DNA of 63,493 nucleotides, counting the filler, from Folioceros fuciformis (lineage: Eukaryota), in the NCBI GenBank assembly GCA_049999805.1. It is 5 parts of 5 records of this genome, joined end to end, with 100 filler letters (N's around TTAATTAATTAA, not from the genome) between each part and the next. Parts side by side here need not be neighbours in the genome. Positions count along the whole stretch, not along the records: positions 40,226 to 57,088 come from JBNGIO010004069.1; 4 more parts are not named here. One strand, written 5' to 3'. This document shows positions 4,229 through 52,339 of this stretch, one piece after another. The notes beneath the pieces are model-generated. The model searched no databases, was not told the DNA's origin, and worked only from the letters and a program-made list of their open reading frames with translations. Position numbers and translations under genes: made by a program. Position 1 is the first letter of the stretch. Each line of letters opens with the position of its first letter.

Positions 4229-4238
4229 NNNNNNNNNN

Positions 4239-4291: not shown

Positions 4292-5598
4292 CTCATGACC
4301 TCATAGAGGGTCATGACTTCTCCTAACTTGAGCTTCTTTGCGTATGCACATTGCTTCATGAGGCTGTTCTAGGTTGCGACAAATGTGCGCTAGCGTGTTG
4401 GTAGGGTCATCAAGAGGGCTATGGCTGCCTGATCCTCTATTAAGGTAGTCCTGCATGAGGCAAGTCTTGCTCTCAAACTGCTGAAGGTAGTTGACATGTG
4501 CTTGGATGCTTTCCCCGTCCTTATATTTAAGGTTGTGGAAGTTCCTTATGGCTGTGGCTTAGTGCTAGGCATCATTGGTTTCAAACATTTGTGTGAAGCG
4601 TTCCTAGATGATTTCTGTTGTCGAGGCACTAAAGGTGTGATGAACCATATCTTTGTCAATCCTGGCACTTAGCAAATTGCGGGCTCTTCTGTCGAATTTT
4701 ATCCATTGATCGTAGCTTACGATTCTTGATGCGGGGCATAGCACTAACCCATTGACTATTGTCCATAGGTCTGCGTCCTCAAGATGTCCTTGCATTCGGG
4801 TGGCCCAAACATCGTAGTCTACACCTATGAATCTATTCTTTTCCTTTATTTCGATGCGGAGGCTAGCATAATGTTGCGTGATAGGGTTTGCAGCACCACC
4901 ACCACCACCCACGACTGCGCCACCACTACGAGCGGTGCCTCCATTGGCTCCTTTAAAGGTTGACATGGTTAGGTTTTATTCATGGAGCTTTAGCGTTGTT
5001 GAAATCGATTGCTTAGGGGATTTGGGGCCTCACATGCTTGGAGAAGATTCTTCCCGTCTCTCAATATGATGCCTATGAGGCTGTGCCGCAAGCGGGTCTT
5101 TGTGTGGACCTTTTTTTCAATCTGGTGAAGCTTCTTCGACACATGGCTCTCCAAGGTAGGCAGTTTGATGTTTCTTCGATTTGGTGCTACTTCTTTAATT
5201 CTCCTCACGGATCTACATCCGGACCGTGGAGAACTGAGAGGGGGATAACTTAATTGGAGATAGTGTTCCTCATGCACTGGTCTTGCCCACAAGTGGGCTC
5301 CCCTCCTCCGAGCCATTAGGTAACCATTCCAGTGGCATGTCTTAAATCCTCTTGCTCTGATACCATGGGAAAACGCACAAAGGTGCGACAATGATCTTTC
5401 TTTATTACAGGAGATCAGTTGGATTATTACTCTTGTTCAGATGGCTCTTGTTATGCTTGCACGTGTGTAGCAAGGCCTATGAGGAGGTGCGACGGTTGGG
5501 CAAGAATTATGGTTAGGTGTTCTTTAGTGAGTGGCGTGAACTATCTTGAGTCAGTCACCTAGGTATGTGGGTTCTCCTAGTCAATCACAATGTTTACA
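4292..5598 (-). mobile_element. 5' part of a second copia element (A): putative LTR 5366-5598, PBS, gag N-terminus
   Basis: gag N-terminal motif YDVWATRMQGHLEDADLW (ORF 4604-4966). tRNA-Met PBS is directly preceded by CA. Candidate LTR start TGTAAA at 5598. This LTR does not match the element B LTR. Confidence 0.65.
5354..5365 (-). other. tRNA-iMet primer binding site (TGGTATCAGAGC)
   Basis: Plus strand gctctgatacca; canonical plant LTR-retrotransposon PBS abutting an LTR-terminal CA. Confidence 0.85.
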
Positions 5599-5659: not shown

Positions 5660-6760
5660 TGCAAATATGGATGTAGGGTTATTAGGGTACAAGATTCCAA
5701 GCTCAAACAAGAAGATGAAATATTTCATCGAAATGTGCTAGAAATGAAGGCTTTCATGATGAAGCATCTCTACGATTTGCTTTTTGCGGATTTGACTTGT
5801 GACTTACAAAAACATGAGAATGACAAGTAATTGATAGATGGTGGCCTTAAAGAACCATTAAGTGGGATCAATAAATACACTAGCAACAGTGTGAACTACA
5901 CTATATCCACGCATGGTGTGGATGAAATTATGCAAGCAAGAAAAGCTTTATGCCCATAGTGCAAAAAGAGAACCATACAAACATTTATATGGTAGAAAAA
6001 TATTCCACGGAACATAGGAGCAGTGGACACAGTTTAGAACCTTAGCATTGGAAGTGATGTTAAGGCGAAGACATCTACATCGAGGGCACCACTATTTTCT
6101 CATGGGGGCTACCTTCTACTTAGAGTTATCCGTCTTGGCATGGTCATTAAAAAGCATTTATCGATCATATTGTAGACTTCATGGTTGTCTCATTATATCA
6201 AAAACCTTTAGGGTTGATAAGTATACTTCTACAAATATTCTTGTGTGATGGCAATTGGGTTGTTTACGCCTTCTAGGATTTGGAAGTTTTCTACAAGCAA
6301 TTATATAGAGATGGTAGAATGTAGTGGCAATAGATATGGATATGAGGTGCACACTATACATGACATAGAGGGTTTATGGTCTAGCAATTTTGTTAGATGT
6401 AGAGGAGGAGATAATAACATCATTATTCTTGAGAGGCCCATCCAAATTTTGGGCCAAGAAAGTTTGCAATATTAGTGATATTGATACAAAGATTCATGTC
6501 TTCAGACTGCTAGGGAAAAGGGGCAATAAGGTGATGCAAATACAAAGAGGGCTACAAACGACCTTTTAGCTATTATAATTTGACATGAAAATAGAACACT
6601 TCCATCACAAACTGTAAAGGCCCCTGAATTTCTTGTGTTGGAGATTGAGGGCAACAACTTTGCAAGTATAGAAGAACAACGACTTAGGTCTTTAGATGTC
6701 ATTGCAGTTTCAGAAGCAAATCAGGAAGAAATGGCTTGAAATTAGAATGAAATATGAGTC
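5660..6760 (+). pseudogene. Decayed beta-class N6A/N4C DNA methyltransferase-like ORF with C-terminal extension (copy 1)
   Basis: Manual translation across stops and shifts: IFHRNVLEMKAFMMKHLYDLLFADLTCD (motif IV-like), FIW*K, YQKPLGLISILLQIFLCDGNWVVYAFxGFGSFLQAII*RW*NVVAIDMD (motif X/I/II-like). Homologous to 42410-43570. Confidence 0.65.
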
Positions 6761-30423: not shown

Positions 30424-30849
30424 CGGTAAACAAAGACCTCTGTCGACTGTTTTCATTTCAGGTGTTGTCACGACAACTGTCATGGATTCAAAGAGACGAA
30501 GATGCTTCACGGGTATTCACAAGCTTACGCAGTATGTGTTCCCTCCGCCACATGCTTCGTACACAAGGAGGAAAGCAACAATAATGGAAAGCTTGGACGG
30601 CAAGTATTCACAATAGCATGGGCGTCAATCCTAGGCTTCTTTGGGAAGAACAAGAAAAGTCCTCAATTTTTTTCTGGTGGTGATCCATAGTCTTCTTTCA
30701 AAAAATAAAAGAAATTCATAATTATAAAATGGGTTCTTCTCCTTTTCTTGGATTGGTTGAACAACTCATTGGTGGCCTTGGAATGAAGTTCTTCCTCTTC
30801 TTCTTCCAACTATTCAGTAGTGTCAACGATTAGTGTCAACTATTCAGTA

Positions 30850-31465: not shown

Positions 31466-32269
31466 GGAACCCTGTTTGAAGAAGCCATTGAAGAAGAACA
31501 GGAATAAAGTTCCTTTTTTTGCTCGGTGATGATCTTCGAATATTGGAATATTGATGGCAAGGGATGGGAGAGTCTACACTTCAAATTCAACAAAGAGAAG
31601 TCTCCTTTGGAGCTTTGATATATTGGATCTGGGTGAGCTCGAATATTAACTCAACCAATATTTCATATAGATTAACTATGTTCTGAATCAATTGTTCAAT
31701 CCTAAAGAGACAATGGCAACTATGGAGTTAATACTTGGTCAATCTCAACCAGGCAATCAAAACAATGTTCAAGTGCAATGGATTCAAGTGTGCAAATGGA
31801 AGATGACCGACAAGAGAAGAGGCACAACAGAAATAAAACTAAAGATTATGGATTGAAATTTAAAATAAAACTAAAGATCCTGATGTGTGAAGTCGAAGTG
31901 ATAGAAAAACTATAGGCTTAAAGCTAGAACATACAGAATATATCATAGAATTATACAGAATGACACTAGGGTCAAAATGAAATTCCTCCTCACAGACGAA
32001 AGACCAATATACAGAATGACACTAGGGTCAAAATGAAATTCATCTTCACAAACACAACCAACTTTAATGTTCGCAACCTAAGACACCATGTTTTTAAGTA
32101 GACTGACTCCGCGAGGCTTTGGCAAACTAGATACCAATTCCTCGCGGTGTCTTGCTGCGCGGGCATGCCAAGTCGAGCACAGGATGCAGACCTCACGCAG
32201 CATCAATCCCAAAATCCCAACCCCGTCGTTTAATGTACATGTCGGACTCAAGGCTACATACCACATAGA

Positions 32270-34309: not shown

Positions 34310-35019
34310 CTGCACCACGACCAACTCAGCTACACACACATCCTAATCACAACTCACCACGCCCCACCACTCCAAACCCNNNNNNNNNNNNNNNNNNNNN
34401 NNNNNNNNNNNNNNNNNNNNNNNTTAATTAATTAANNNNNNNNNNNNNNNNNNNNNNNNNNNNNNNNNNNNNNNNNNNNGGCCAAGAGCAGCGATCGAGA
34501 CAGGCGGTTTCTCTTAAACAAACTGGAAAACAATGGCGGTTGACTACCTTCTCCATCCGCAGCTGAAGGGTCCATCTTTCGGGTTATTCATCCAATGTAA
34601 AAGGAAAAAAAAGGGAATAATTCCTAAAAAATCACTATACCTATGTAAATAATAAATGCAGTGTAAAAAACATATTATTTATTCATCCAGTCTATGGATA
34701 GGATTTTTTTCATTTTTTTTCAAAAATAAAAAAATCCGTTAAAAACTAACATATCTATCTAAAAAATAAATCAGTATAAAAAATAAAGAAATCAAGGAGC
34801 TAAAATATTATAATATTTTCATAATAAATGGAAACATTGGCTTACGCTGGTGTCGGAAATAGACCGGAAATAGACCATGAGGAGGCAGCCATTCGCACAG
34901 CGGTTACTGCGATAGACGTAAGGCACGCATGGTTAGCGCAGACAGACCTTGAGACTGCCGTTATATGTATTACGGTCAAACAGTTATTTAACTATGTTCC
35001 CTGGGCTGGGAATGAAGCA

Positions 35020-37293
35020 TCAAACACTTGGACCCGCAGCATCATGACTCATGTTCGCCACCTTGTGCCCAGCTCCGAATCCCATGTGCCCCAGCAGCAC
35101 CCAGATGTGGGTGATGAATTCCCCGCCCTCCGTGAGCAGCTCCACATGCTCCTTGGCCTTCTCAAGCACGGCTATGGAGATGAGGAGGTCCGCCCACACA
35201 TTCCCCAGCATCTCCCACATCTGGGCCCTCATCTGGGCGCTACTCTCCTGTTCCTTTTCCGAAGGACAAAAGCGTTCGCGCAATTGCGACGCAAGGAGTC
35301 TCCCAGCCTTCCATGGCTCCTGGGCATACTGTTGCGGATGCTCCTTGGCACGCCACTCGCGGAGATCGTCCGCGTCGTCGTCCAGAAGCGTCCTGGAAGC
35401 CAGAGTTCCCCCCGCCTGCCTCTGGCTGCTGTTGTGCGTCGCAAGATTGGGAAGGTGGAGTCGGCGCTGGAGTTCGTGATTGGTGTTCAAGAACACCTCC
35501 TTGGCCAGGGTGGCGTTGGAGGGCAGCAACTGCGTCCGCTCCTTGAGCAGGTACAAAGTGTACCGCGACAAGTACTGCGACATCTCTTTGTGGTTGTCGG
35601 CCTTAGCGGAGGAGCAATCGTTGCTGCCCAGAATCATTGCCTTCAGCTCTGTCCACAGGATTTGGAATATGCTGCCTTCCTGGTAGTTCTCCTCACAGTT
35701 GATCTCGTGGGCCTCGCACAGGCTGGTGGCCACGTGCCATGTGACTATGGCGTTCTCCAGGTCCGTGCTGCTGGCCCATGCGAAGTTCTCTGGATCACGC
35801 TGGTCTCTTCTGCTGGTGTGGGCGTGGTAGCCGGAGAGAGTGTACCCGGGAACAGAGGCCATGGTGTCCTTCAGGTCCTGCAATTGCCACTTCTCTTCAG
35901 GGCAGTTCTCGGACGAGGGCTTCTTCGCCTGGTCCAGGAGGTTGCACCTTTCGAACACTTTGCGTAGAAGGAAGATCTCTAAGTCTCGCGCCTTGGTCTT
36001 GGGGACACTATGCCTGTCGTCGAATTCCTTCTCTCGGTCAGGGATCATGGAGACCTGCCCGAACCTGTGCCTCCAGTAACTGTGCCGGAAGGACCCAAAA
36101 ACCTTGAGGTTCACCACCGACTGGTGGCATAGGGCCACGTAACCCATGACGGTCCAAAAGTAAGTGAGAATTATTTGCTTGGGCCAAACACGGGTGTCGT
36201 CTCGACGAGGTTGTTCCCTTTTCACCTGCCTGCGACATATGACATACGCGCAGGTTAGCCAGACTCTCGTCCAGTCTGTGAGGACCACCCTTACCAGCTG
36301 GTAAACCTCCACCAGGATAATAAAGGCGAACAGGATCCATGTCACTATTCCAGCCACGCCGTTTGGCTGGAGCTCCTTCTCCCCTTGCTTGAAGACAATC
36401 AGGGAGCATATGATGATGACGGAGAGGGAAGAGGCTCGGGAGCCCGGGCCGACCCATGTGTATGCTGTGCCATACGATTTGGTGAACACGCTGTCGAACA
36501 GGAATCGGAGCTCTATGTCCAGGACGTTGACGAGTCTGTTCCTTGGAGGTTCTGAAGGTTTTTTAGACGGGTCTTGGATAGCTGCTGAGCTTGATGATGA
36601 TAATGACTCTCCCCACAGCTCATTGAAGAATGTTCTGATCTTGTCGGTGCTCCACTCGTGCATGTACAGGTTTGTGAGCCGTCTGCGGTACATCTTGAAG
36701 AGAGCAAAGGCTATGCAGATGTCCACCACTTTCCTGCCGTGGCCCGGATTCTGTGCCTGAAGTGCTTCCCTGTGGTCCGTCACCTCTGAGACCATCACCA
36801 CCACGTAGGACTGTCTGATCTTTTGTTCCGTTGCCTTCCGGTCGTCTTTGGGCTCGATTGGGACCCATCGAGACCAGTTGGTGAACAAGGGCTCGGACCA
36901 CTTCTGTTTCTGCAAGAAATGGTACCATTTCGGAGTGTTGAAGGCGTGCTCGTATGCCCGTTTCTCTCCTAGTACGAAGTAGTTGTATTCTCCATTAGAT
37001 TCGCTATACAAATTAGATTCTCCATACAAATTAGATTCTCCATCATATTCGCCATACACATTAGATTCTCCATCAGATCCCCTATCCAAAGGGTCGAACT
37101 GCATGAGTTTGCAAAGGGGGCCGGCCGCCTTGTCCAGATAGTCCCGGCTGGCACAGCGCAGAGCCACAGTTCGCTCGGCGTACTTCCCAGTTCCCACTAT
37201 AGCCAGAATCACGCTGATCCAGAGGATGGTGCCGTGTGCCGAGGAGAACACCACATAGAACGCCGTGACCACCTGCCCAGCCAGCGACATCAC
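35020..37293 (-). CDS. DUF4220/DUF594 membrane protein (5'-truncated by gap), copy 1
   Basis: GTGKYAERTVAL, ICIAFALFKMYRRR, LDIELRFLFD, WHVATSLC, LSRYTLYLL and C-terminal WADLLISIA..HVELLTEGGEFITHIWVLLGHMG. Confidence 0.88.
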   Translation of the reverse strand: MMSLAGQVVTAFYVVFSSAHGTILWISVILAIVGTGKYAERTVALRCASRDYLDKAAGPLCKLMQFDPLDRGSDGESNVYGEYDGESNLYGESNLYSESNGEYNYFVLGEKRAYEHAFNTPKWYHFLQKQKWSEPLFTNWSRWVPIEPKDDRKATEQKIRQSYVVVMVSEVTDHREALQAQNPGHGRKVVDICIAFALFKMYRRRLTNLYMHEWSTDKIRTFFNELWGESLSSSSSAAIQDPSKKPSEPPRNRLVNVLDIELRFLFDSVFTKSYGTAYTWVGPGSRASSLSVIIICSLIVFKQGEKELQPNGVAGIVTWILFAFIILVEVYQLVRVVLTDWTRVWLTCAYVICRRQVKREQPRRDDTRVWPKQIILTYFWTVMGYVALCHQSVVNLKVFGSFRHSYWRHRFGQVSMIPDREKEFDDRHSVPKTKARDLEIFLLRKVFERCNLLDQAKKPSSENCPEEKWQLQDLKDTMASVPGYTLSGYHAHTSRRDQRDPENFAWASSTDLENAIVTWHVATSLCEAHEINCEENYQEGSIFQILWTELKAMILGSNDCSSAKADNHKEMSQYLSRYTLYLLKERTQLLPSNATLAKEVFLNTNHELQRRLHLPNLATHNSSQRQAGGTLASRTLLDDDADDLREWRAKEHPQQYAQEPWKAGRLLASQLRERFCPSEKEQESSAQMRAQMWEMLGNVWADLLISIAVLEKAKEHVELLTEGGEFITHIWVLLGHMGFGAGHKVANMSHDAAGPSV

Positions 37294-37847
37294 GAGTNNN
37301 NNNNNNNGGCCAAGAGCAGCGATCGAGACAGGCGGTTTCTCTTAAACAAACTGGAAAACAATGGCGGTTGACTACCTTCTCCATCCGCAGCTGAAGGGTC
37401 CATCTTTCGGGTTATTCATCCAATGTAAAAGGAAAAAAAAGGGAATAATTCCTAAAAAATCACTATACCTATGTAAATAATAAATGCAGTGTAAAAAACA
37501 TATTATTTATTCATCCAGTCTATGGATAGGATTTTTTTCATTTTTTTTCAAAAATAAAAAAATCCGTTAAAAACTAACATATCTATCTAAAAAATAAATC
37601 AGTATAAAAAATAAAGAAATCAAGGAGCTAAAATATTATAATATTTTCATAATAAATGGAAACATTGGCTTACGCTGGTGTCGGAAATAGACCGGAAATA
37701 GACCATGAGGAGGCAGCCATTCGCACAGCGGTTACTGCGATAGACGTAAGGCACGCATGGTTAGCGCAGACAGACCTTGAGACTGCCGTTATATGTATTA
37801 CGGTCAAACAGTTATTTAACTATGTTCCCTGGGCTGGGAATGAAGCA

Positions 37848-40121
37848 TCAAACACTTGGACCCGCAGCATCATGACTCATGTTCGCCACCTTGTGCCCAG
37901 CTCCGAATCCCATGTGCCCCAGCAGCACCCAGATGTGGGTGATGAATTCCCCGCCCTCCGTGAGCAGCTCCACATGCTCCTTGGCCTTCTCAAGCACGGC
38001 TATGGAGATGAGGAGGTCCGCCCACACATTCCCCAGCATCTCCCACATCTGGGCCCTCATCTGGGCGCTACTCTCCTGTTCCTTTTCCGAAGGACAAAAG
38101 CGTTCGCGCAATTGCGACGCAAGGAGTCTCCCAGCCTTCCATGGCTCCTGGGCATACTGTTGCGGATGCTCCTTGGCACGCCACTCGCGGAGATCGTCCG
38201 CGTCGTCGTCCAGAAGCGTCCTGGAAGCCAGAGTTCCCCCCGCCTGCCTCTGGCTGCTGTTGTGCGTCGCAAGATTGGGAAGGTGGAGTCGGCGCTGGAG
38301 TTCGTGATTGGTGTTCAAGAACACCTCCTTGGCCAGGGTGGCGTTGGAGGGCAGCAACTGCGTCCGCTCCTTGAGCAGGTACAAAGTGTACCGCGACAAG
38401 TACTGCGACATCTCTTTGTGGTTGTCGGCCTTAGCGGAGGAGCAATCGTTGCTGCCCAGAATCATTGCCTTCAGCTCTGTCCACAGGATTTGGAATATGC
38501 TGCCTTCCTGGTAGTTCTCCTCACAGTTGATCTCGTGGGCCTCGCACAGGCTGGTGGCCACGTGCCATGTGACTATGGCGTTCTCCAGGTCCGTGCTGCT
38601 GGCCCATGCGAAGTTCTCTGGATCACGCTGGTCTCTTCTGCTGGTGTGGGCGTGGTAGCCGGAGAGAGTGTACCCGGGAACAGAGGCCATGGTGTCCTTC
38701 AGGTCCTGCAATTGCCACTTCTCTTCAGGGCAGTTCTCGGACGAGGGCTTCTTCGCCTGGTCCAGGAGGTTGCACCTTTCGAACACTTTGCGTAGAAGGA
38801 AGATCTCTAAGTCTCGCGCCTTGGTCTTGGGGACACTATGCCTGTCGTCGAATTCCTTCTCTCGGTCAGGGATCATGGAGACCTGCCCGAACCTGTGCCT
38901 CCAGTAACTGTGCCGGAAGGACCCAAAAACCTTGAGGTTCACCACCGACTGGTGGCATAGGGCCACGTAACCCATGACGGTCCAAAAGTAAGTGAGAATT
39001 ATTTGCTTGGGCCAAACACGGGTGTCGTCTCGACGAGGTTGTTCCCTTTTCACCTGCCTGCGACATATGACATACGCGCAGGTTAGCCAGACTCTCGTCC
39101 AGTCTGTGAGGACCACCCTTACCAGCTGGTAAACCTCCACCAGGATAATAAAGGCGAACAGGATCCATGTCACTATTCCAGCCACGCCGTTTGGCTGGAG
39201 CTCCTTCTCCCCTTGCTTGAAGACAATCAGGGAGCATATGATGATGACGGAGAGGGAAGAGGCTCGGGAGCCCGGGCCGACCCATGTGTATGCTGTGCCA
39301 TACGATTTGGTGAACACGCTGTCGAACAGGAATCGGAGCTCTATGTCCAGGACGTTGACGAGTCTGTTCCTTGGAGGTTCTGAAGGTTTTTTAGACGGGT
39401 CTTGGATAGCTGCTGAGCTTGATGATGATAATGACTCTCCCCACAGCTCATTGAAGAATGTTCTGATCTTGTCGGTGCTCCACTCGTGCATGTACAGGTT
39501 TGTGAGCCGTCTGCGGTACATCTTGAAGAGAGCAAAGGCTATGCAGATGTCCACCACTTTCCTGCCGTGGCCCGGATTCTGTGCCTGAAGTGCTTCCCTG
39601 TGGTCCGTCACCTCTGAGACCATCACCACCACGTAGGACTGTCTGATCTTTTGTTCCGTTGCCTTCCGGTCGTCTTTGGGCTCGATTGGGACCCATCGAG
39701 ACCAGTTGGTGAACAAGGGCTCGGACCACTTCTGTTTCTGCAAGAAATGGTACCATTTCGGAGTGTTGAAGGCGTGCTCGTATGCCCGTTTCTCTCCTAG
39801 TACGAAGTAGTTGTATTCTCCATTAGATTCGCTATACAAATTAGATTCTCCATACAAATTAGATTCTCCATCATATTCGCCATACACATTAGATTCTCCA
39901 TCAGATCCCCTATCCAAAGGGTCGAACTGCATGAGTTTGCAAAGGGGGCCGGCCGCCTTGTCCAGATAGTCCCGGCTGGCACAGCGCAGAGCCACAGTTC
40001 GCTCGGCGTACTTCCCAGTTCCCACTATAGCCAGAATCACGCTGATCCAGAGGATGGTGCCGTGTGCCGAGGAGAACACCACATAGAACGCCGTGACCAC
40101 CTGCCCAGCCAGCGACATCAC
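37848..40121 (-). CDS. DUF4220/DUF594 membrane protein, copy 2 (identical; possibly an assembly duplicate)
   Basis: Same 757-aa translation as 35020-37293. Confidence 0.6.
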   Translation of the reverse strand: MMSLAGQVVTAFYVVFSSAHGTILWISVILAIVGTGKYAERTVALRCASRDYLDKAAGPLCKLMQFDPLDRGSDGESNVYGEYDGESNLYGESNLYSESNGEYNYFVLGEKRAYEHAFNTPKWYHFLQKQKWSEPLFTNWSRWVPIEPKDDRKATEQKIRQSYVVVMVSEVTDHREALQAQNPGHGRKVVDICIAFALFKMYRRRLTNLYMHEWSTDKIRTFFNELWGESLSSSSSAAIQDPSKKPSEPPRNRLVNVLDIELRFLFDSVFTKSYGTAYTWVGPGSRASSLSVIIICSLIVFKQGEKELQPNGVAGIVTWILFAFIILVEVYQLVRVVLTDWTRVWLTCAYVICRRQVKREQPRRDDTRVWPKQIILTYFWTVMGYVALCHQSVVNLKVFGSFRHSYWRHRFGQVSMIPDREKEFDDRHSVPKTKARDLEIFLLRKVFERCNLLDQAKKPSSENCPEEKWQLQDLKDTMASVPGYTLSGYHAHTSRRDQRDPENFAWASSTDLENAIVTWHVATSLCEAHEINCEENYQEGSIFQILWTELKAMILGSNDCSSAKADNHKEMSQYLSRYTLYLLKERTQLLPSNATLAKEVFLNTNHELQRRLHLPNLATHNSSQRQAGGTLASRTLLDDDADDLREWRAKEHPQQYAQEPWKAGRLLASQLRERFCPSEKEQESSAQMRAQMWEMLGNVWADLLISIAVLEKAKEHVELLTEGGEFITHIWVLLGHMGFGAGHKVANMSHDAAGPSV

Positions 40122-40225
40122 GAGTNNNNNNNNNNNNNNNNNNNNNNNNNNNNNNNNNNNNNNNNNNNNTTAATTAATTAANNNNNNNNNNNNNNNNNNN
40201 NNNNNNNNNNNNNNNNNNNNNNNNN

Positions 40226-40652
40226 ATGACAAGGCTCTACAGGTATATAGCAGCCACCCACGACAGGGGCATCATGTACAGGTCGAAATCCAAAAATGCA
40301 TTGCAGTTAGTGGATTACAATGACGCCGACTGGGCCGCCGACCCTGATAGCAGAAAGAGTGTCTCTAGCTATGTTACCTTGCTTGCTGGAGGTGCTGTGG
40401 CCTGGAGTAGCAGGAGACAAACCACAATCGCACTCTTCTCGACAGACGCCGAATACAAGAGTCTCACAGAGGCCTGCAAAGAGGGAAGTGATTGCAGCAG
40501 GAGTGGTGGAAATTATCTACTGCCCGACAAGAGAGATGACAGCTGATATCCTCACGAAAAGTCTTGGGCGCATCAAACACTACCAGCACGCCACCAGCCT
40601 TGGACTCTGCGCTGCAGGAGAACTCTTCAAATGGAGCAGGGTGCTTGATTAG
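40226..40652 (+). mobile_element. Ty1/copia RT/RNase H fragment with internal deletion
   Basis: YNDADWAADPDSRKSVSSY..WSSRRQTTIALFSTDAEY, then in another frame YCPTREMTADILTKSL. PPT-like agtgggagag near 40881. Confidence 0.88.
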
Positions 40653-42409
40653 TAGCTCAACAGAGCTTGGGCGCAGCCGCAAAAGAACTGGAGCGCAAGT
40701 GACTGAACGAAAGTCGAGAAGTCGGCCTGCCCTAGTTTCTGGATTTTTCGAGTCTAGGTTGCTCAAATCTCGTTAGCAAGTTTAAGCTTTTCTCTATGTC
40801 AAGTAGATATAGATAAGCAAACAATAAATGACATATATATACATATATAGTTAAGTATGTGTAGATAGCCCTCTCACCTGAGTGGGAGAGTTAGAGTAGG
40901 GTAAATACATTAACTTACTTATAGGTTTAGGGCTAGACAGTTAGAAACCCTAATCGTCGCCATATCTTGGTGACGTGACCGAGAACGCTGAGCAACAACT
41001 TTTCTTTTCTCACGCTGTGACACCCATCTGATCCGTCTCATGAAAAGCAACAAGTTGGCAAGATTTGGGGAGTCCTGAAAAGGACAGTCCCGAATTTGCC
41101 TTGTCCCCGTAAATCCACTTCCAAAGGGGTAGGCCTTGCTTGCCATTGGTATAAGGTCCCCCACGGAGGACCATGAACACCATGTAGTCATAGACACCCG
41201 AAGGGCATGGATGGTGAATTAGAGGATGGGACAATTCCATCGCCGCAAGCCATCATAGGGTGTCATAGAATGCCCAAGCCAATATGGTCAACTGATTTGG
41301 GGGTCATGGAACTTCGGGTTCAGTGACCCGAGGACCTGTTATTAGTAGCCAAACCATGCCGAAGAGTGAAACTGCCATGGGCCAAAGAGACTGTCGGGTA
41401 TAAAAGAGGCCGCTCGGACCGTATTCAATCACTTTATTAACCAAAGCACCAAAAAACTACCAAGTGCCTGTCGTTCGATTTTTGGAGGGGAGTTTCGGTA
41501 CCTGCTACCTTCCACACAACCCTTGAGCAAACCACATGCAAGGAAGATGTTGTGCTGGCCCATCACAAAGTAAGTATGCATTCCAAAGAGGCATCAAACT
41601 GCAATAGCGTTCGCATTGTTGGGGTTTAAGGTTATGAGGGCTCCCGATTGCAAACACAATAAGCAATTCTTCCTTTTGCACATTTTTGTGCACGCACAAC
41701 CTATGTTGTGTGGACACCCAAAAGGAGCGTAAATGGGCATTGGCTGCATTGCGCATACGCAATCTACATAGGAAATTGGCCTATCCGATTCGCGCCCAAT
41801 AGCCCCAACATGGGACTCACTCAATGCTTTCTGCAGTGCTGTGACTCTTTCACCACTTGGGGTTTAGAGATGTGGGATTTGTAGCACGCATCTTGTGGAT
41901 GTACTCAAGGTGTACACATGGAGGACATCCAATATTGAATGAAAGCTACCACCTATAGATCCCGCTGCCACTCACCCCATTACTTTCCTTCCCCATTCTA
42001 AATATCAATGCAATTTGACGAAGCAATCTCAAGAACCACACTTATGTGAAACTAGGAAGGGGAATAATAAGTATTGGTGTAGAAACACAGACACCCAGAC
42101 CATCAACCCCTCATGTTATAATCTGCCTACTCAAATGCAACAGCTATACAACATCACGTTACACTGGGTTACTGAGCCTAGCCCCAACCTGCTGTTTGTT
42201 GCACTTGGGAGCAACATAATAAGAAAATGTTACTCGGTGTGTTACTGTGTTAGAGGCCTAACGTAGTAGTGATGATTGATGCACCTACATACCTGCGCAA
42301 CAAGGATAGTGGCACCAATGTCAACCTCATCTGACGTTGTAAACCGTTCATCACATGAACATTACATAATGTTCATGTGATGAATTGGAAGCAAATGAAG
42401 GAGGAGAAG

Positions 42410-43570
42410 CAACAATTAGGAGATGCAGGATTGTCAAAATACAGGATTCCAAACTCGAAGGACAAAGTCAAATCATTTCATAGAAATGTACTTAAGATGA
42501 AGGTTTTTATGACAAAATGACCATATACTTTGTTTTTTGCGGATTTACCATGTGGGCTGCAAAGGCATGAGAATGACAAGTTGCTGACTGAAACTAAGCT
42601 AGAAGAGCTATTGAGTGGATTCAATGAGTGTACTAGTAGCAATGTCGATCGGATTATCTTCATGCATAGTGTGGATGAAGTGATGCAAGCCAGAGAGGCT
42701 TTATGTCGATGATGTAAAAGAGTACCACACAGACCCTGATATGGGAGAAGACAAATATTCCACCAAACTTTGGAGTAGTGAAGATAGAAGACNNNNNNNN
42801 NNAGAAGACAAATATTCCACCAAACTTTGGAGTAGTGAAGATAGAAGACAAATATTCCACCAAACTTTGGAGTAGTGAAGATAGTGGAGTATCTAACCAT
42901 TAGCAGTGCTATGAAGGTAGAGACAAGTGAACAAAGGGCACCACTATTTTTTGCTCGCGGTATAAACCTTCTTCTTCGAGTCATTCAGCATGAGCCGTGG
43001 TAAAAAAGCATATGTTTCATACTGCACACTCTATGGTTGTCTCATCGTATCAAAACCCCTTGGATTGCTAGGTATGTTACTGCAAATGTTCTCATGTGAA
43101 GGTGATTGGGTGGTAGATGCCTTGGTAGGTTCCAGAAGGGTTTTACAAGCGGTTATCCAACATGGGTGGCACACAAAGGCCATCGAATAGGAAACTTGCC
43201 AGATGCAAAGAAGAGATTTCTATTTCATCGTTTGTTAGAGGCCCTTCAAAATTTTGGGCAAAAGAAGTTTGTGCCGATGAGAAAATTGATAGGAAGATGC
43301 AAGTCTTCAGCTTGCTTAGGAAAAAGGGCAATAAGGGCTCCCACAACGTTGAAAGGGTTGAGGAACATCCTCTTGCTATAATAGCATGGGATGAAAACGG
43401 CACACTCCCACCCTAAAATGTGGAGGCATCCGAATTTTTTGTCCTCGAGGTAGAGGGTGATGATTTTTGCTGATACAAAGGAGCAATAACTGAGGTCCCC
43501 GGACGTAGTTATAGGAATTAAAATCTAACTGAGAAGAATTGTCTTGAGATTTCAAGAGCTTTTGGTTTTG
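42410..43570 (+). pseudogene. Decayed beta-class N6A/N4C DNA methyltransferase-like ORF with C-terminal extension (copy 2)
   Basis: SFHRNVLKMKVFMTK*PYTLFFADLPCG, IWEKTN, KPLGLLGMLLQMFSCEGDWVVDALVGSRRVLQAVIQHGWHTKAIE, then RGPSKFWAKEVC... Collinear with 5660-6760. Confidence 0.7.
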
Positions 43571-44966
43571 AGGAGCCAGAACGTTTAGGCTTAAGTGCTC
43601 TAGTATACTAGCGGCGCACTATTCTTTGGATCTACAACTTTAAGCTGTTAGAGCTTCTCCATGGCTTAAGTTATGCAAGCTTACTTGCGTGTACTCAAGC
43701 TTTTTCAAATACAATACTATGGTGTACATGCATGCAACATGGTTTTTATGAACCTTAATGAACTTAAACACATATGTGGTTGGTCTTTTACATTATGCCT
43801 TTGGGGCTGAATGGGCTTTCAAGAATTTGCCTGCTTGGCGTAGACCATGTGTTTTATGGAATTACCTTGAGAAAGTGTTTTATAAAATTATTTTTCTCGC
43901 TTTCAAAATTGCGCTCAAACCCAATCTCTTCACTTGTGCAACTATTTATAATACAAGCGTTTAATAGCCATTGTGGCTGAGCAAGCAGTTAGCGGTGGTT
44001 TTTGATCTGGTACTGTGTAGGTTCCAAAGGAGGTTAACACAAAATGTAACATCGAAAAGGTGGTGAACTTCATTACAGTTGCTTTCCATAAAAAAGAAAA
44101 TTCTATGTATTTGCAAGAGACAATGCTTGGAGTGGTGTCATGCATATGGTGCCTGCAACACATGCTTGTCCAATGTGAGCCCTCCCCGTGCCCTCCTCGG
44201 TGCTATGAGGTTTCCACATTTAGGTCTTACTTGTCTGGTGATTCTATATCCACACAAACCAACACTATAATTTATCTCCCTCTCTTGGGGTAGATGTATT
44301 TTTTCCGTCTTATTTTCTCAAATAAATAAATCATACTTTATTTCTATATTTTTAGTTTTGTTTCCCTGCACTCCACTTCATTCATGCACGCATTATGTGT
44401 CAGAGGGTACGTACTTTTTATCCTAGAATACGCTTGGATGTACGGACGACCCCTTGTGAGCAAAGAAACAAAATACTGCCGTGAAGGAGATTCTGAAGCA
44501 GCGTCCAGTTGTCCGATCTCGTTGTCCCGTGTCCAGGATATTATAGAACCCGCGGATGCGTAGCGAGTAACACCGTCTGGACAGCGAATGCCGGCCACAG
44601 AGCACCGGCCAATACCTTCCGTGAGGCCCGTCGCAGCGTTGGGTCGCAGGAGCACACAAGGCTACGTCTTGACGCCGTGGAGGTTGTTGGCGAGTCATCC
44701 GCTCTTCTGCGCTCCACCAATGACGTCTCCGGGACGGCAGCGGCAGTGGGAGTGGCAGCGCTGATCCAGGCCCTTCCTTTCTCGCTTGCCCCGTTGTGAC
44801 CACACGTCGTTCTGCAGCTCTCGGTTAAGAATACCGGGTCAGGAATCGCCTTCATTGCCCGCGCTGCTGATCCACTCCCTTTCAGCACGAACCTGGTGCG
44901 TTAATCACGTTGGAAACTCCCGGAATCCTTGATATCGTCGGTGAATTTTTCCCCACGGTGCGGGCG

Positions 44967-47900
44967 ATGGAGGCTTCTGCCGGAAGCGCCTCGGTGGCAC
45001 AGGACCCTACAGGTGGAACCTGTCGTCTTTGGAGGAATTAGATCAGCGTGCCACTAAACAAGATCGTGCAGCGCTGCATCTCGACATCGAAAGTGAAAAG
45101 GAACGTTAACGGTGGCGCAACACGCACATGAGGATGCTCCACTTCCGGGACCGTCTCATCCTTGCAGCCGGTGCCTGATCGCTGGTAATGGTATTTTCTT
45201 GACAAAAGAACGTTCCTGGGCATCGCTGCCAGAATGGGCTTAGGAGAAGTCGAGTTGATTTCTTGATTTGCTTCGATGCTCTCGGAGGAAGGAGCGGTCC
45301 TTGGAACGGCCACCTTTGATAGAATGGAGTACCCTAGCGTCTGGCGGATGCTCCCGGAGCGTCATTCCTGGACGCTTGTTTGTGTGTGATCACTGTGATG
45401 AGAATCGTGTACGAAGATCCCTGTTGCCTGAATTTCGGCAGTTTGGTAGAGCCACCGGAACGTAGCTGTAATTCGAGCTCCTGCGAAAGGTTGGGCGTGA
45501 ACAGCGCAGCAAGTTCTAGAGGCAGAACGCGGTAGAATCCTTTGATCGGCTTCACCGCGGAGAGAAGATGATGAACAAGCTATTTTGTCTGGATGCGTGC
45601 TGCTGCCTGGAATGAGTGTTAGGGAATGAAGTTAAGTGGACTGCTGGATTGCGGGTGTGGAGCTGCACTGTACAACAAATCTGCAACTCGTCCTTCACCT
45701 GTGCACCGAATGCGACTAGGAGATGAGAGCTTGGACTGTGGATGATGAAGACGGCGTGGTTTCTATGGTATGTTCACACAAATTCTGGTCTTGATGCAGG
45801 CTTGTTTTCTGGCACTTGAACAAGGACTTGCACATCGCATCGACAATAATGTTGTCCAGTAAGTCCATTATGCATGTCGCTTTCTTGTGTGCTCGCATTA
45901 ATGCTGGCTCCTCCAGTGCTTCGTGGTACGTCTTGTGAAATTAACATGCGATTGAACCTCCATCTTTTGATTGTTGTATAGTGGAATGGTCACGCTTCTG
46001 CAGCACTCCGGGAGGATCTGCTGGTGGAAATTGCATGGGAGGGATCTGCTCTCCTCTTCAACAATCAGCTTCTGCGTCATCATGTCAGGAAGCGCTGCAT
46101 CTGGCCCCCTGCAGCTTGCAAGCTCTTATTACGGGAGCGCAAATCATTTTCCTTGCGTCCTATCTATTTCTCTGTGTGATGAGGTTCAACGCTTTATGGC
46201 GACAACGTTTTGGTATAAGGGATTTGCTAAGAACTAGGCAGACCCCGTCCATTTTCCGCCCAGTTGTTGCCTGTTTGGCTCTGTGCGTGGGTACTGCAAG
46301 TTTTGGTGTTGGAGGTTGGCAGCTTCTTTCGAGTTGGGGTGCTTCGGCTGAGCCTACGTACCAGGGGGTCGGATTGCTCGTTAAAGGCTTGGCATGGATT
46401 GTGCTGTCCCTGACTCTCGGCATATCTGCCCCGCCATCGATGGTCACTTTCCTTGAAATATGGTGGGTAGCTACTTTTCTTCTGGAAGGTACTGCTGCCA
46501 TCACAGCTGCATTGGACATATTAGTCTATGCGCAGAACTTATGTGCTGAGTACGTAGTGGATTTCGCAACCTGGTCTGTGTCCTTCTTGTTGCTTATTTG
46601 CCTTTGCAAGAGGGAAAAAATGGATACAGTAAGGGAGTCATATACAGAGCCTCTTCTGAACGGGAATCGATTCAAGCAGGACTCTGATGCGGCAGACCCG
46701 TTACTGGCTGAGGATGGATTATGGGCAGACAGGCATGGCGAGGACTACATTGTGACACCTTTTGAAAGGGCTGGAGTCTTTAGTCGTCTATCCTTCCTAT
46801 GGCTGTCTCCACTCATGTCTTTGGGGTACAGCAGACCTCTTGAGCAAACAGATTTACCTCAACTTGGTACATCGGATAAGGCACTTACTGCATACAACCT
46901 GTTCAGAGCAGCTTGGCAGCGCCAGCAAGTAGAAACTCCCTCAAAGGCTCCATCCTTGGTTCAGGTGTTTGCAATGTGCCATTGGAGGGATCTTGCCAAG
47001 AATGGCGTGTTTGCATTACTCAAATCATTGACTTTGTCCGCTTCACCTGTCATCCTAAACCTTTTCATAGGATTCGTCGGAGGAAGGAAAGCGTTTGAAT
47101 ATGAAGGGCATTTCCTTGTGCTGGGACTATTTTTGGCAAAAATAACAGAATCTCTGTCACAGCGCCAGTGGTACTTTGGGAGTCGAAGGGTGGGACTGCA
47201 TCTGAGGTCGTCCCTTATTGCAGCTTTGTATCACAAGGAGCTAGTACTGTCAAATTCTGGGAGGCAAAGACATGCAGCAGGAGAGGTAGTGAGCTACATG
47301 GCAGTCGATGCGTACAGGATCGGAGAGATCCCTTTCTGGTTTCACCTTCTCTGGACGACGCCTTTGCAAATTGTGATAGCTTTAATCATTCTGTTCTCAA
47401 CAGTTGGAATGGGCACCCTGGCGGGACTGGCTATACTTCTGGGTGTTATGATTCTGAATTCTCCTTTGGCAAAAGCCCAACAGAGATATCAGACGTCATT
47501 GATGGATGCACAAGATGCTAGATTGAGAGCAACAACTGAGGCTTTGCGCAATATCAGAATTCTCAAGCTTCAAGCATGGGAGGTCAAATTTAAAGAGAAG
47601 ATTGAAAGCCTTAGACATGAGGAATGGAAATGGTTGTCAGCTGTTCAGTTCAAGAAGGCTTACAACTCAATGTTGTTTTGGGTGTCTCCCATTTTCATGG
47701 CCACGGCAACTTTTGTAACAGCTGCCCTTCTTGGAACACCTCTGACTGCTAGCAGAGTTTTCACTGCTCTTGCAACTCTGAGAATCATACAGGAACCTAT
47801 TCGACTAATACCTGAATTACTTGCTGTACTGATACAGTTCAGGGTGTCGACTGGTCGTGTTGCAAAATTTCTGGAAGAGAAAGAGCTTGACCTGGGTGCT

Positions 47901-50900
47901 GTTGAGAGGGTCGCAAGGAACAGCACGAGTTATGCGGTTGAGATTCATAATGGTGTATTCAGCTGGGAATCGAATTCAGAGACTACTGTATTGAAGGACA
48001 TCACGGTTCAGATTCGACATGGTGATCGCGTTGCTGTGGTTGGTGAGGTTGGAGCTGGAAAGTCCTCACTCCTATGTGCTATAATTGGAGAGACTCCAAA
48101 GCTATCTGGCGTGGTAAGTTACATATAGCTTTCAGTATTTCAGAGATGGCATATGTTTGACGCTTTGGAGGAAGTTCCTGCAGCTTATGTTTACAGATGA
48201 TAATTTGGAATAATACTCTTTGTCAGCCACTTGACAGCCATTCTTGTTGCAGGTGAAGGTTGCTGGCAGCACAGCGTACGTACCGCAGACTCCATGGATT
48301 CAGAGTGGTACGGTGCAGGACAACATATTGTTTGGGCTTCCCATGGATGAATCTCGTTACAACGCATGCATTAAAGCATGTGCTTTGGACAAGGACATAC
48401 AGGGGTTTGCATATGGGGACCAGACAGAAATAGGTGAGAGGGGCATCAACATGAGTGGAGGGCAAAAGCAGCGGATTCAATTGGCCCGGGCAGTCTACCA
48501 GGATGCAGATATATATCTGTTGGATGATCCATTCAGTGCTGTAGATGCTCACACTGCCTCAAGTCTCTTCACAGTAAACGCCACCTTCCTTGCAGTACTC
48601 ATTTATCCTAGTGCACTTGTGTTTGCTTTGTATATGTTTCCTGTTCTTTGGACTGATGCCTTGAGTTTATTCCAGGACTGTGTGATGGGAATCCTTGCAC
48701 AGAAGACTGTTGTCCTGGTGACTCACCAAGTGGAGTTCCTTCCAGCGCTTGACATGATCCTGGTATGGCAAAAACTCTTTTCTGACTGATTTCTGCTCAG
48801 CGTCAGGGACTTGATACCTGCGTGTTATTCAAACTAAGTCGCGCCTTCTCAACTTGCTTGTCAAAAAATCAACCTTTGCAGCTTGTGGACGACGGGGAGA
48901 TTCGTAAGAAGGGAGGCTTTGATGAGTTGTTGGAGTCAAGCAGCGTGTTTGGAGATCTTGTGAATGCTCACCAACAAACCATGGGCCTCGCCAGCGGCAA
49001 CGGGGAACCGGATGATGCAATCGACACTAGCACAGTTGCAGTCCCGATTAGCAAAATTGAACATTCGGAAAGGAGACAAGGAAGCAAATTGAAAACATCA
49101 CGTAACCCGGGGGTAGTTGACGGGCATCAACTGACAAAGAAAGAGGAAAGAAAATTTGGGAGTCCAGGTCTTACAACATATAGAGACTATCTCTGGCAAA
49201 ATGGTGGATATTTATTCTGTCTGGGTTGTGTTGGCTCGCAACTCATGTTCGTTGCGGGGCAAATTGCAAGCAACTGGTGGATGGCCTCCGAGACTGGGAA
49301 TCCTGAGATTTCTGTCAAAAATCTCGTTGGAGTATATGCAGGCTTTGGATTATTGTCTGGTTTTTTTGTGTTAATGAGGTCACTCTTCATTGTGTGGATG
49401 GGCTTGGCAAGTTCATCTTCCTTCTTTTCTGGAATTATGGATTCTGTGTTCCGTTCTCCTATGGCTTTCTTTGATTCAACTCCCACAGGCCGGATTCTTA
49501 GTCGGGTAATAATCTTATCTCGTCGCACAGGGGAGGGTACATGTAGGTCGAAACCCGTTTTTGGTGGCTGTGAGGTGCTGGCAAGGATGTAACATCGATC
49601 TTTCGTGCAGGTATCCTCTGACATGAGCTTAATGGATCTCGATGTTCCATTCAACCTCGGGTTTTCCATTGGAGCGACTTTGAATGCTTGGAGCTCCTTG
49701 TTAGTAACTGTAGCGGTCACATGGCAAGTTGTCATCCTGATTTTCCCTGTGCTATGTTTCAATGGCTGGCTGCAGGTACGAAATTGGCATCTGGTGTTTC
49801 TTTCTGATAGTGCTCTTACATGAAGTCGTGATCTCTACAGGCCATGTCGCCGCGTGTGCTATAACTGTGGCTAACGCTTTCTTGTTTTGAAACAGAGATA
49901 CTACTTGGCGTCTGCCCGGGAGATTATGAGAATGAACGGGACCACAAAAGCACCTCTAGTGAACCACTTTGGGGAGGCCAGTGCTGGAGCAGTTACCATT
50001 CGAGCGTTTCGAGTAGAAGAACGTTTCAAGAAGAAAAATTTGAAACTGATTGATGACAATGCATCTGCTGTGTTCCACAGCTTTACAGCTAACGAATGGC
50101 TGATTCAGCGACTGGAATTTATGTCCAGTTTGGTGCTGACAGCGTCAGCTCTTCTGATTGTACTATTGCCAGCAGGGCAGATTGATCCTGGTACGTTGTT
50201 GTTTTCGCTGGTCATGTGCCATAGCGCAGAACTGGACCTGACAAATTTAGCCACGGATTAGTGTCACTCTCTTCCTAACTCTCCTTGATGCAGGTTTCGT
50301 GGGACTTGCGCTTACGTATGGACTCACTCTGAATGTGTCGATGGTCTATAGTGTGCAAAATCAGTGCACCCTTGACAACAACATTATATCCGTGGAGAGA
50401 ATCAAACAATTTATGAGCCTACCAAGCGAAGCTCCTCGTGTGATCGAAAGCAACCGACCTCCCGTTCAGTGGCCCAGCAAAGGCAAAGTGGAGTTGCAGA
50501 ATTTACAGGTTTGCGTTCAATCTCTGGGTGTTTAGGATGGTTTGTGTTCAATCTCTGGGTGTTTAGGATGGTTTGCGGTCCTGTTAAGTTTACCACGGAA
50601 CTAACGTAATTGTCACCTGGACAGATCCGGTACCAGCCGCATTCTCCGCTGGTGTTACGTGGAGTGTCATGCACATTTCAAGGTGGACAGCGAGTCGGTG
50701 TGGTTGGTCGCACGGGGAGTGGAAAGACAACACTTGTCAGTGTCCTGTTCCGCCTAGTGGAACCCGCCGGTGGCAACGTTGTAATTGATGACATAGACAT
50801 CACCACTATTGGGTTGTATGATCTGCGATCAAGACTGAGTATCATTCCTCAGGAACCGACCATGTTTCGTGGCACCGTCCGATTCAACATGGATCCGGTG

Positions 50901-51678
50901 GGGCAGCATCCCGACCATCTCATTTGGGAGGTAACAGTGATCATAATGGGATTGTTAGTAGACAATGCAGCAAATGGACATGCTTGGAATTGGTGTCTGC
51001 AGTTCAATGTTAAACAAGGTTGCGGTGCAGGCCCTTGACAAATGCCAGCTCGGAGATGTGATTCGAGAAAGGCCACATGGATTGGATTCTCCAGGTGCCG
51101 CTAAACTAAACTTTTGCCCTTGCGTTAAGGTCTACATTGCACGGGCGGGAAAGAGGAACCAACCTATTTTGCTCGTTTTCATGGGCATGCAGTCGGGGAT
51201 GATGGCGAGAACTGGAGCGCGGGACAGAGGCAACTCTTCTGTTTGGGTAGAGTTTTGCTGAAGCACAGCCGTATTCTGGTTCTGGATGAGGCCACAGCGT
51301 CAATAGACAATGCCACGGACTCCCTTCTTCAGAAAACAATTCGGCAGGAATTCTCGGAATGCACCGTCATAACTGTGGCACACAGAATCCCGACCGTGGT
51401 GGACAGCGACATGGTTTTAGCCCTACACGACGGTGCAACGCTTTCCCGCTCTGGATTCACCTCCATTATCACTCTTGTTGTACATTTGCTCTCTTGCTTG
51501 CCAGGCAGTGGGTATTCACTACTGATCACACTGTGTCTTTGCGGATGTAGGTGAAATAGCCGAGTTTGACCAACCATTCAAGCTGCTGGAAGATAGCACA
51601 TCCCTGTTTGCGAAACTTGTTGCCGAGTACTGGTCCCACGCCCAGCACGTGTCGGAAAGCGGCCACGATCAGGACTAG
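44967..51678 (+). CDS. ABCC: ABC transporter C family (MRP), ~12 exons; first exon 44967-45012 tentative
   Basis: TMD0-TMD1-NBD1 ([21 protein letters not shown])-TMD2-NBD2 ([22 protein letters not shown]). GT-AG introns; stop TAG 51676-51678. The tentative phase-1 first exon splices to the acceptor at 45981. Confidence 0.95.
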
Positions 51679-52339
51679 AAGCAAGAGACGTCACGTACTA
51701 GGCTTACCATAAGCCTGGGGTGAAGCTGCACAAGTCGTCTAGCTCACAAATTTAAGCGAACGACTGGGTGTGAAAACGAATTCGCGAGGCGAAACTCTGT
51801 AAGTGTCTCTCAGACTCAAGTTTCATACGATGTTTTGACTTCACGCTTCTTTCCTGACCGAGAGTGTTTCTTCTCCTCGTCTTCGTGCTATACGTCCAGG
51901 GCAACGCTACCTTCCCCGAATGTATGAACCAGGGGCGTGGTGTGGGTGTATTGCCCTGCCTCGGTCGTAGATCAGCGTCCCAGAGCTGTGGGATACAGCC
52001 GACGTTCCGTCGTAGTGTATCTAGGTCGGTACAAGCTCTTGTGTACTGTAGTGGTATCGGGTATCCAACAACCAGTATTGCTATATGTATGTCTGTCAAC
52101 TTTGGGGCCATAAAGGGGAAAGGGCAGGTGATGTGAAATTCAATTTGTTGGAAATGTGTGGATGTGGATTTCAGGCACCGACACATCGGTATGGTTTTCT
52201 TTAACCCTATATTATAAAGGAATATGCCGCAAAAAACCGGTACTAACAACCGGCTCATCGTTATTTTTTTTTAAACCTACATTTTAGGGGAATATAATGC
52301 GGCTTTAAGTATGTTCTAGGGTTCTTCTTGTGGATAATG

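Follow-up and report, generated by a model that had tools for sequence, protein, structure and literature searches.

Two broken copies of a small intronless open reading frame (ORF), both on the plus strand, lie in a 63,493-nt stretch of Folioceros fuciformis DNA (below, the window; all coordinates count along this whole stretch). As positions run in the window, ~37 kb separate them; copy 2 is within record JBNGIO010004069.1 (positions 40,226 to 57,088). Fragments of copia elements adjoin both copies, and several other genes occupy other parts of the window (Table 1). Parts of the ORF faintly resemble permuted DNA methyltransferases of bacterial or phage type. We consider here what the two copies have in common, how they decayed and what kind of gene or element they may have come from.

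Table 1. Features of the window: the two ORF copies with their motif-like sites and lesions, adjoining elements and other genes
Feature	Position	Strand	Basis or remark
Copy 2, decayed intronless ORF relic, ~356 ancestral codons	42422..43547	+	blastn, MAFFT, codon analysis
Copy 1, decayed ORF relic, homologue of copy 2	5670..6739	+	blastn, MAFFT, codon analysis
Motif-IV-like site of copy 2, FADLPCG	42536..42556	+	at the place of (D/S/N)PPY, without the aromatic residue
Motif-IV-like site of copy 1, FADLTCD	5783..5803	+	
KP...L and motif-I-like stretch of copy 2, KPLGLL...GDWVVDALVGS	43053..43133	+	sole part matching methyltransferase profiles
Counterpart in copy 1, KPLGLI...GNWVVYA, then LGFGSF	6202..6270	+	LGFGSF in the next frame
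C-terminal extension of copy 2, ~110-125 codons	43210..43547	+	
C-terminal extension of copy 1	6405..6739	+	
Lesion in copy 2, 40-nt unit present three times	42746..42889	+	includes an assembly gap of 10 Ns (42793-42802)
Lesion in copy 1, 46 bases that copy 2 lacks	6309..6354	+	just past the motif-I-like site
copia element by copy 1	1900-5365	-	gag 4604-4975, integrase 2753-3370, reverse transcriptase (RT) 1900-2547
Primer-binding site of the copia element by copy 1	5354..5365	-	perfect 12-nt match to initiator tRNA
C-terminal end of presumed copia-type pol ORF, 1.8 kb upstream of copy 2	40226..40650	+	stops at 40650; no Pfam match
Perfect 18-nt inverted repeat with 2-nt loop	42347..42384	.	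38 nt upstream of copy 2
GH17 glucanase with X8 domain	11969-13384	-	
DUF4220/DUF594 gene, present twice	35020-37341 and 37848-40169	-	
ABCC transporter	45945-49592	+	
PPR-E protein, 1057-aa ORF	59256-62429	-	

Comparison of copy 2 with copy 1 by blastn produced three high-scoring segment pairs, all collinear and in plus/plus orientation: 42422-42780 with 5670-6025 (70.3% identity, E-value 4.7e-40), 42846-43156 with 5994-6304 (69.3%, 5e-27) and 43237-43457 with 6432-6651 (70.1%, 3e-17). In the MAFFT alignment the copies are 67.4% identical over 1016 aligned sites, with 208 transitions and 123 transversions (Kimura two-parameter distance, K2P, 0.447). Protein read-throughs, built by script with X at stops and frame breaks, each recovered the other copy in tblastn searches (E-values 1e-51 and 6.5e-54); neither detected a third copy in the window, and self-comparison of the whole window gave the two stretches no other partner. 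An earlier description of this DNA, made from the sequence alone (the sequence-only reading), had reported collinear protein-level similarity over ~1.1 kb; the three pairs of peptides that it quoted were found on the plus strand in the order stated. The locus it gave for copy 2, 42410-43570, is right as to place, while the real extent is slightly narrower (Table 1).

Homology between the copies starts at 42422 in copy 2 and 5670 in copy 1. At the 3′ end it fades at most ~20 nt past a TGA that closes the open reading at homologous positions (43545-43547 in copy 2 and 6737-6739 in copy 1). A more permissive search of the flanks, 2.3-2.9 kb on either side, gave no further homology. The conserved unit is the ~356-codon ORF only, without introns. 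Its conserved reading begins CR(I/V)(V/I)(K/R)(I/V)QDSKL; there is no conserved start codon at the 5′ edge, and the nearby ATG is out of frame. A splice acceptor at this edge was considered and rejected: there is an AG at 42418-42419, but the tract upstream of it is purine-rich, and copy 1 shows no counterpart.

The differences between the copies are distributed as in a coding sequence, and from this pattern we regard the former protein-coding nature of the unit as a robust conclusion. Over 274 codons in the inferred frames, the Nei-Gojobori method gave pN 0.244, pS 0.605 and a ratio of non-synonymous to synonymous substitution rates (dN/dS) of 0.24, a value that is biased downwards because the frames were picked by eye from the alignment; this counts against our interpretation below, and the shifted-frame and best-phase controls offset it only in part. 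In the two shifted control frames the same blocks had dN/dS values of 0.63 and 1.03. Differences at codon positions 1, 2 and 3 number 100, 75 and 140 (chi-square p 3.6e-5), an excess matched by 2 of 5000 best-phase nulls, in which the differences were scattered at random within each block and the most favourable phase was taken per block. Synonymous divergence (dS) between the copies is ~1.2, and amino-acid identity in the inferred frames is 56%. The coding signal in the last 110-125 codons is at least equal to that of the core. Taken together, the dN/dS ratio, the codon-position pattern and the best-phase null indicate that a large share of the divergence built up under purifying selection on the inferred frame. 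The proposal of the sequence-only reading that the copies descend from separately evolving functional members is supported by these values, the dN/dS between the copies not being near 1.

Both copies are heavily damaged. In the inferred frames copy 1 carries five in-frame stops and copy 2 seven; the frame changes at least five times in copy 2 and several times in copy 1, and 12 of the 13 indel events that distinguish the copies are not multiples of three. The longest stop-to-stop ORF on the coding strand measures 95 aa (both copy regions). The lesions sit at different sites in the two copies, with a single exception, a codon at which each copy has a stop: it follows ALC(P/R) and reads TAG in copy 1 (5950-5960) and TGA in copy 2 (42703-42712), which fits two independent G-to-A changes of a single ancestral codon. 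In the tandem repeat of copy 2 the run of 10 Ns is flanked by perfect repeat copies; the repeat (42746-42889) is missing from copy 1 and from contigs of closer paralogues (see below), which join 42719 to 42843. A 168-aa ORF on the minus strand (42478-42984) was rejected as a candidate gene; it has no Pfam match, owes part of its length to the tandem repeat and is without a counterpart in copy 1. The GC content of the copies is 37-41% and their ratio of observed to expected CpG 0.34-0.44; the neighbouring GH17 gene has 60% and 0.71. Judged by their lesions, both copies are long dead and their deaths were separate; neither has a present-day function. The substantial nucleotide divergence and unlike lesions described in the sequence-only reading are thus borne out, with stops and indels almost all at different sites.

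We consider it rather probable that the unit originated from a methyltransferase. A 74-aa piece of copy 2 (42966-43190) matches PF01555 (N6_N4_Mtase) at profile positions 165-203 of 221 (E-value 0.0016, 18.9 bits), and the same residues match four PHROG families, three of them annotated as methyltransferases (E-values 0.016-0.05). In the protein atlas, 29 of the 30 nearest clusters belong to PF01555 (top score 0.93, 176 shared features). For comparison we used a reference set of 13 beta-class enzymes, made up of YhdJ of E. coli and 12 phage enzymes (L004-L015). A hidden Markov model (HMM) built from this set ranked the copy 2 piece first among 2003 window ORFs of at least 20 aa (E-value 0.023). 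When a profile of the two copies was compared with the 13 enzymes by hhalign, P was 4.7e-4 over 48 columns that start at QKP, take in the glycine loop and end with GiE.

Global alignment with the reference enzymes placed the landmarks of the unit in beta-class order: NVLEMK with GDcLevm, (Y)DLLFADLTC with (V)DLIFADPPY (and DL(L/F)FADL(T/P)C with SVDLIFADPPY or DLILCDLPY), RAPLF with HEpil, KPLGL with QKPvaL, and LGFGSF/LVGSRR with MGSGTT; as a global aligner can pair some motifs by chance, we take this alignment as support, not proof. The permuted order is present in both copies, with FADL(P/T)C located ~140 codons upstream of KPLGL; this distance is 160 codons in YhdJ, and ~130-170 is the range looked for. 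Where a motif I loop would read F-x-G-S-G-T-T after (T/S)QKP..L, copy 2 reads KPLGLL...GDWVVDALVGSRRV. Departures from the canonical motif IV occur in 4 of the 12 phage enzymes (L009-L012): it is DLPY in the enzymes of Xanthomonas, Bacillus and Salmonella phages (L010-L012) and DILY in that of a Flavobacterium phage (L009). Since DLPY occurs naturally in three of these enzymes, the DLPC of copy 2 is one step from a natural variant. Between the copies, conservation is highest in the C-terminal extension, which has coding periodicity; this extension has no counterpart in the 13 bacterial and phage enzymes and no Pfam match.

Relatives of the unit were sought in large sequence collections. Word-index protein searches with pieces of 74, 63 and 95 aa found no relative, and an exhaustive phmmer search with an 85-aa piece against 1.84 billion representatives returned one match and no credible relative. 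The sole match, a 2321-aa repetitive bacterial surface protein, was rejected as spurious (it arose via GxWxVDALKGS-like repeats). Viral and metagenome contigs yielded 44 and 88 pattern matches, none of which was confirmed. Literature searches on PF01555/N6_N4_Mtase in plants and eukaryotes returned no paper on such a family in flowering plants.

Further copies in the genome itself were examined with contigs from the DNA runs X1 and X2, both of the same organism, compared with positions 42200-43700 at a likeness of at least 80%. The fractions of sampled words of this stretch present in the two DNA runs are 0.87 and 0.86. For X1, 18 contigs were placed: 7 at 99% likeness or more, 1 at 90-95% and 10 below 90%. 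For X2 there were 20, divided 8, 2, 1 and 9 across the four likeness bands, the last 9 being below 90%. The contigs below 90% are, at the contig level, other genomic copies that resemble copy 2 more than copy 1 does; copy 1 itself is ~70% like copy 2 and so cannot pass the 80% filter. Run X3 showed 137 C>T changes, had no contig of at least 95% likeness and behaves like a bisulfite-converted library, for which reason its likeness classes are unusable. Run X4, which we guess to be RNA, placed no contigs on 42200-43700, a result with no bearing on expression.

Two paralogue contigs cease to fit at 42422, which is the 5′ edge of the homology between copies 1 and 2, and continue for 309 and 644 nt in unlike sequence. 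Beyond the stop codon paralogue contigs fit again as far as the compared stretch reaches: one matches up to 43570 and, after a skip of 72 nt, resumes at 43643, and a loose paralogue end at 43695 runs on in recognisably similar sequence. In the closer family members, therefore, the unit reaches 3′ beyond the ORF. In bins upstream of 42404 the depth is only that of the locus's own contigs. At the contig level the family has more than two members. With ~10 fragmentary pieces per run, the data suggest a handful of copies and not an abundant family (contig depth is not equal to copy number, and members less than 80% like copy 2 are invisible to this test). The sequence-only reading had spoken of an abundant family: existence of more than two copies is upheld by the contig pieces 80-90% like copy 2 in both X1 and X2, while the abundance is not.

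The copia element by copy 1 retains a zinc-knuckle/gag region. Its 5′ long terminal repeat (LTR) starts at 5366, 305 nt upstream of copy 1, and heads towards it; a search of 1-2000 did not reveal its 3′ LTR. The 5′ LTR may have its outer end at 5568-5579 (three mismatches), but this is a guess only. The ORF end upstream of copy 2, which we take to be that of a copia-type pol, was identified by eye. The copia neighbours of the two copies have no sequence in common, and in 10 flanking ORFs there is no Pfam domain beyond the copia gag. Part of the second arm of the inverted repeat upstream of copy 2 resembles sequence upstream of copy 1 (15 of 20 bases by eye), and we find this sharing unconvincing. 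The idea that the unit itself is an LTR was ruled out by strand inconsistency together with the coding periodicity.

The explanation that we prefer, at only just under an even chance, is that the copies are independently decayed relics of a small multi-copy gene family derived from a permuted methyltransferase, with a mobile or virus-like vehicle as its most likely carrier. The ancestor would have been an intronless ORF of ~356 codons. Its first ~230 codons would go back to a permuted DNA methyltransferase (beta class, N6/N4 amino) of bacterial or phage type, and a conserved extension would make up the remaining ~110-125. The two lineages were apart for long under purifying selection, as the codon pattern indicates, after which each copy died and gathered stops, frameshifts, a tandem repeat and loss of CpG. 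The vehicle may have been an old mobile or integrated virus-like element whose ends are no longer recognisable here. The living protein would have bound S-adenosylmethionine (SAM) via the motif-I loop. As both copies are without the aromatic residue of motif IV (DLPC/DLTC), the ancestor was perhaps already catalytically altered or inactive. Probably it modified DNA in a SAM-dependent manner or had a derived role, which, given the DLPC motif, may have been non-catalytic. We think it improbable that the copies are fossils of an undescribed lineage of flowering-plant mobile or virus-like elements carrying a beta-class methyltransferase fused to a novel C-terminal domain.

A number of results weigh against this explanation. 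The PF01555 score is below the gathering cut-off of 26.7 bits, and motif IV (DLPC in copy 2, DLTC in copy 1) is without the PP-aromatic of (D/S/N)-P-P-(Y/F/W); on these two grounds we do not class the unit as a member of PF01555. Seven of the eight open pieces have no relevant Pfam match, none of the eight matched NCBIfam, and searches of PDB with phmmer and with a two-sequence profile found no methyltransferase. In the N-terminal half the best segment falls exactly on motif IV, with a score that was reached by 56 of 300 column shuffles; the N-terminal piece had a best score of 0.77 in the protein atlas and no family. With the 13-enzyme HMM the joined read-through scored no higher, and copy 1 alone gave no match. 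The E. coli protein PrmA, which is not of the beta class, also matches PF01555 (positions 170-219, 22 bits), showing that the C-terminal part of this profile is not class-specific; the match of our unit there could reflect a generic SAM-binding loop. An AlphaFold model of the 74-aa piece, made from a two-row alignment, was all-helix with a mean predicted local distance difference test score of 53 and unusable. The term methyltransferase-like, as used in the sequence-only reading, is plausible in view of several weak profile signals, but the likeness stays below the Pfam cut-off and covers ~40-48 residues.

The mobile vehicle meets objections of its own. Neither copy is bracketed in the window by terminal inverted repeats, LTRs or target-site duplications, the last of which are unreadable because the ends of the unit are undefined. 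No run of seven or more As, by which a retrocopy would be recognised, occurs within 600 nt past the stop of either copy. No transposase, RT or recombinase is linked in the same arrangement at both copies, the copia neighbours have opposite orientations relative to the unit at the two loci, and the region upstream of copy 2 is of single depth. The transposon with a methyltransferase cargo gene that the sequence-only reading had proposed is plausible but unproven: homology stops at the ORF, terminal repeats, target-site duplications and poly(A) are all lacking, and the elements nearby are only copia fragments in inconsistent orientation. Examination of the flanks of both copies for element ends and a linked transposase likewise found none.

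Absence of element ends, terminal repeats and a linked transposase would be natural if the copies were relics of an ordinary non-mobile host gene family, ancient or once horizontally acquired, that was duplicated in the normal way and then became dispensable. Few extra copies were seen, and homology confined to the coding sequence is what one expects of old paralogues whose flanks are saturated (dS ~1.2, K2P 0.447). Still, we consider this origin unlikely: a host family of long standing would be expected to have annotated orthologues in other plants, yet no relative came from the word-index searches or from the exhaustive phmmer search (1.84 billion representatives); every copy in the window is dead and lies in intergenic copia-rich DNA with CpG loss of the methylation type; and the genes that flank one locus are unrelated to those at the other. 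The absence of orthologues, along with dispersed copies that are all dead and alike in the coding sequence only, tilts the balance towards a mobile or viral origin, a tilt that we draw from absence. The N-terminal half of the unit lacks significant similarity, motif IV is not of the expected form, significant similarity is confined to one short stretch, PrmA shows that the same part of PF01555 catches unrelated SAM-binding loops, and ~125 conserved C-terminal codons match nothing in Pfam, PHROG or NCBIfam. All this would suit a repeat-borne ORF unrelated to methyltransferases, such as one accessory to an LTR retrotransposon or another element, in which likeness to motif I over 30-48 residues is generic or due to chance, and copia fragments do adjoin both copies. 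We see in this a rather unlikely explanation, since those copia neighbours are opposite in orientation relative to the unit and unrelated in sequence, three independent libraries agree on the family and on the residues matched, motif IV is exactly where the best local alignment of the N-terminal half lands, at a collinear position, and the order and spacing of several landmarks are those of the beta class.

A non-coding dispersed repeat, LTR-like or satellite-like, with a codon-like pattern arising by accident, might be suspected from the 5′ edge, where there is no conserved start codon, the unit opens with TG(C/T)AGG and a copia LTR starts 305 nt upstream of copy 1. Starts of the TG(C/T)AGG kind are found in many LTRs. 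This explanation is very improbable in the face of the three-base periodicity of differences (seen in only 2 of 5000 nulls), the dN/dS of 0.24 compared with 0.63 and 1.03 in the other frames, amino-acid identity of 56% at nucleotide identity of 67% and the homologous TGA that closes the open reading in both copies. Moreover, both units are on the plus strand while the neighbouring copia elements are on opposite strands.

The set of genes in the window is of the flowering-plant type. Papers found to name DUF4220 together with DUF594 deal with cacao relatives, wheat, sorghum, poplar and rice. In the window the DUF4220/DUF594 gene draws attention by its two copies: the ORF is duplicated along with two 2818-bp stretches (34480-37297 and 37308-40125) that are 100% identical, with 10 Ns between them and paired 44-N runs on their outer sides. 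This has the look of an artefact of scaffolding or gap closing, or else of a tandem duplication of very recent date. The window holds 492 Ns in 13 runs (paired runs of 44 Ns, four of 10 and one of 100). The filler between parts takes the form of two 44-N runs 12 bases apart at 26946-27045, 34380-34479, 40126-40225 and 57089-57188. Internal direct repeats of ~70% identity occur at 30850-31469 (within a 207-aa ORF, 30787-31410) and at 59840-61549, where they correspond to the PPR repeat array of the PPR-E ORF. On the plus strand at 15273-16971 there are two overlapping open frames of 296 and 315 aa without a Pfam match at an E-value of 0.001 or lower. A search of the whole window against Rfam gave no matches.

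The unit can be compared with several known systems. Like plant gene-family pseudogenes and degenerate ORFs of transposable elements (TEs), the copies are dispersed, CpG-depleted, enriched in AT, broken by independent stops and frameshifts and located beside copia elements; the difference is that the searched protein collections yielded no relative of the unit's ancestral gene. With beta-class enzymes of PF01555 (YhdJ and the phage enzymes L004-L015) it shares the size of the core and the landmark order of motif IV, RAPLF/HEpil, KP..L, motif I and GiE. It differs from them in its sub-cut-off score, in the motif IV sequences DLPC and DLTC, in the extra C-terminal extension of ~110-125 codons, and in residing in a plant nuclear genome with every copy seen broken.

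In the nuclear genomes of eukaryotes, amino-DNA methyltransferases of prokaryote type are a rarity, known as N4CMT of rotifers, DN4MT1 of Marchantia and the Dam retrotransposons; each of these altered ideas on eukaryotic epigenetic marks. If an intact flowering-plant member of the present family exists, it would be a candidate writer of N6-methyladenine or N4-methylcytosine, or part of a mobile element that manipulates host chromatin. The current value of the two dead copies is as a handle for finding the rest of the family rather than as a functional discovery.

N4CMT of bdelloid rotifers is a permuted amino-methyltransferase fused to a C-terminal chromodomain and is described as having no eukaryotic homologues (PMC8885841). 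The Marchantia genes DN4MT1a/b are sperm-specific tandem duplicates with a TSPPY motif (bioRxiv 10.1101/2021.02.12.428880). Compared with the unit, both are likewise prokaryote-type permuted amino-methyltransferases in a eukaryotic genome, and N4CMT is also extended at the C terminus; unlike the dead unit with its DLPC, they are intact, expressed and catalytically active, and N4CMT has introns where the unit is intronless.

DAM-DIRS and DAM-LTR retrotransposons, which carry a Dam-type adenine methyltransferase, are reported in a recent preprint as widespread in eukaryotes, with many orphan DAM copies read as degenerate TE remnants and with DAM-LTRs absent from Streptophyta (bioRxiv 10.64898/2026.05.21.726589). 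An element of this kind is recognised there by a Dam-type domain with Asn-Pro-Pro and by an RT or tyrosine recombinase that shares its ORF or lies no more than ~3 kb away (bioRxiv 10.64898/2026.05.21.726589). None of the eight pieces of our unit matched the Dam family at E-values up to 1, and there is no RT or recombinase on a continuous frame with the unit, the upstream pol ORF stopping at 40650. The unit resembles these elements as a probable prokaryote-like DNA methyltransferase multiplied in a eukaryotic genome, and differs from them in enzyme class. Should the copies indeed be fossils of an undescribed flowering-plant element lineage, which we regard as improbable, that lineage would be a streptophyte counterpart of the methyltransferase-bearing retrotransposons, and intact members of it might persist in the present genome or in related ones.

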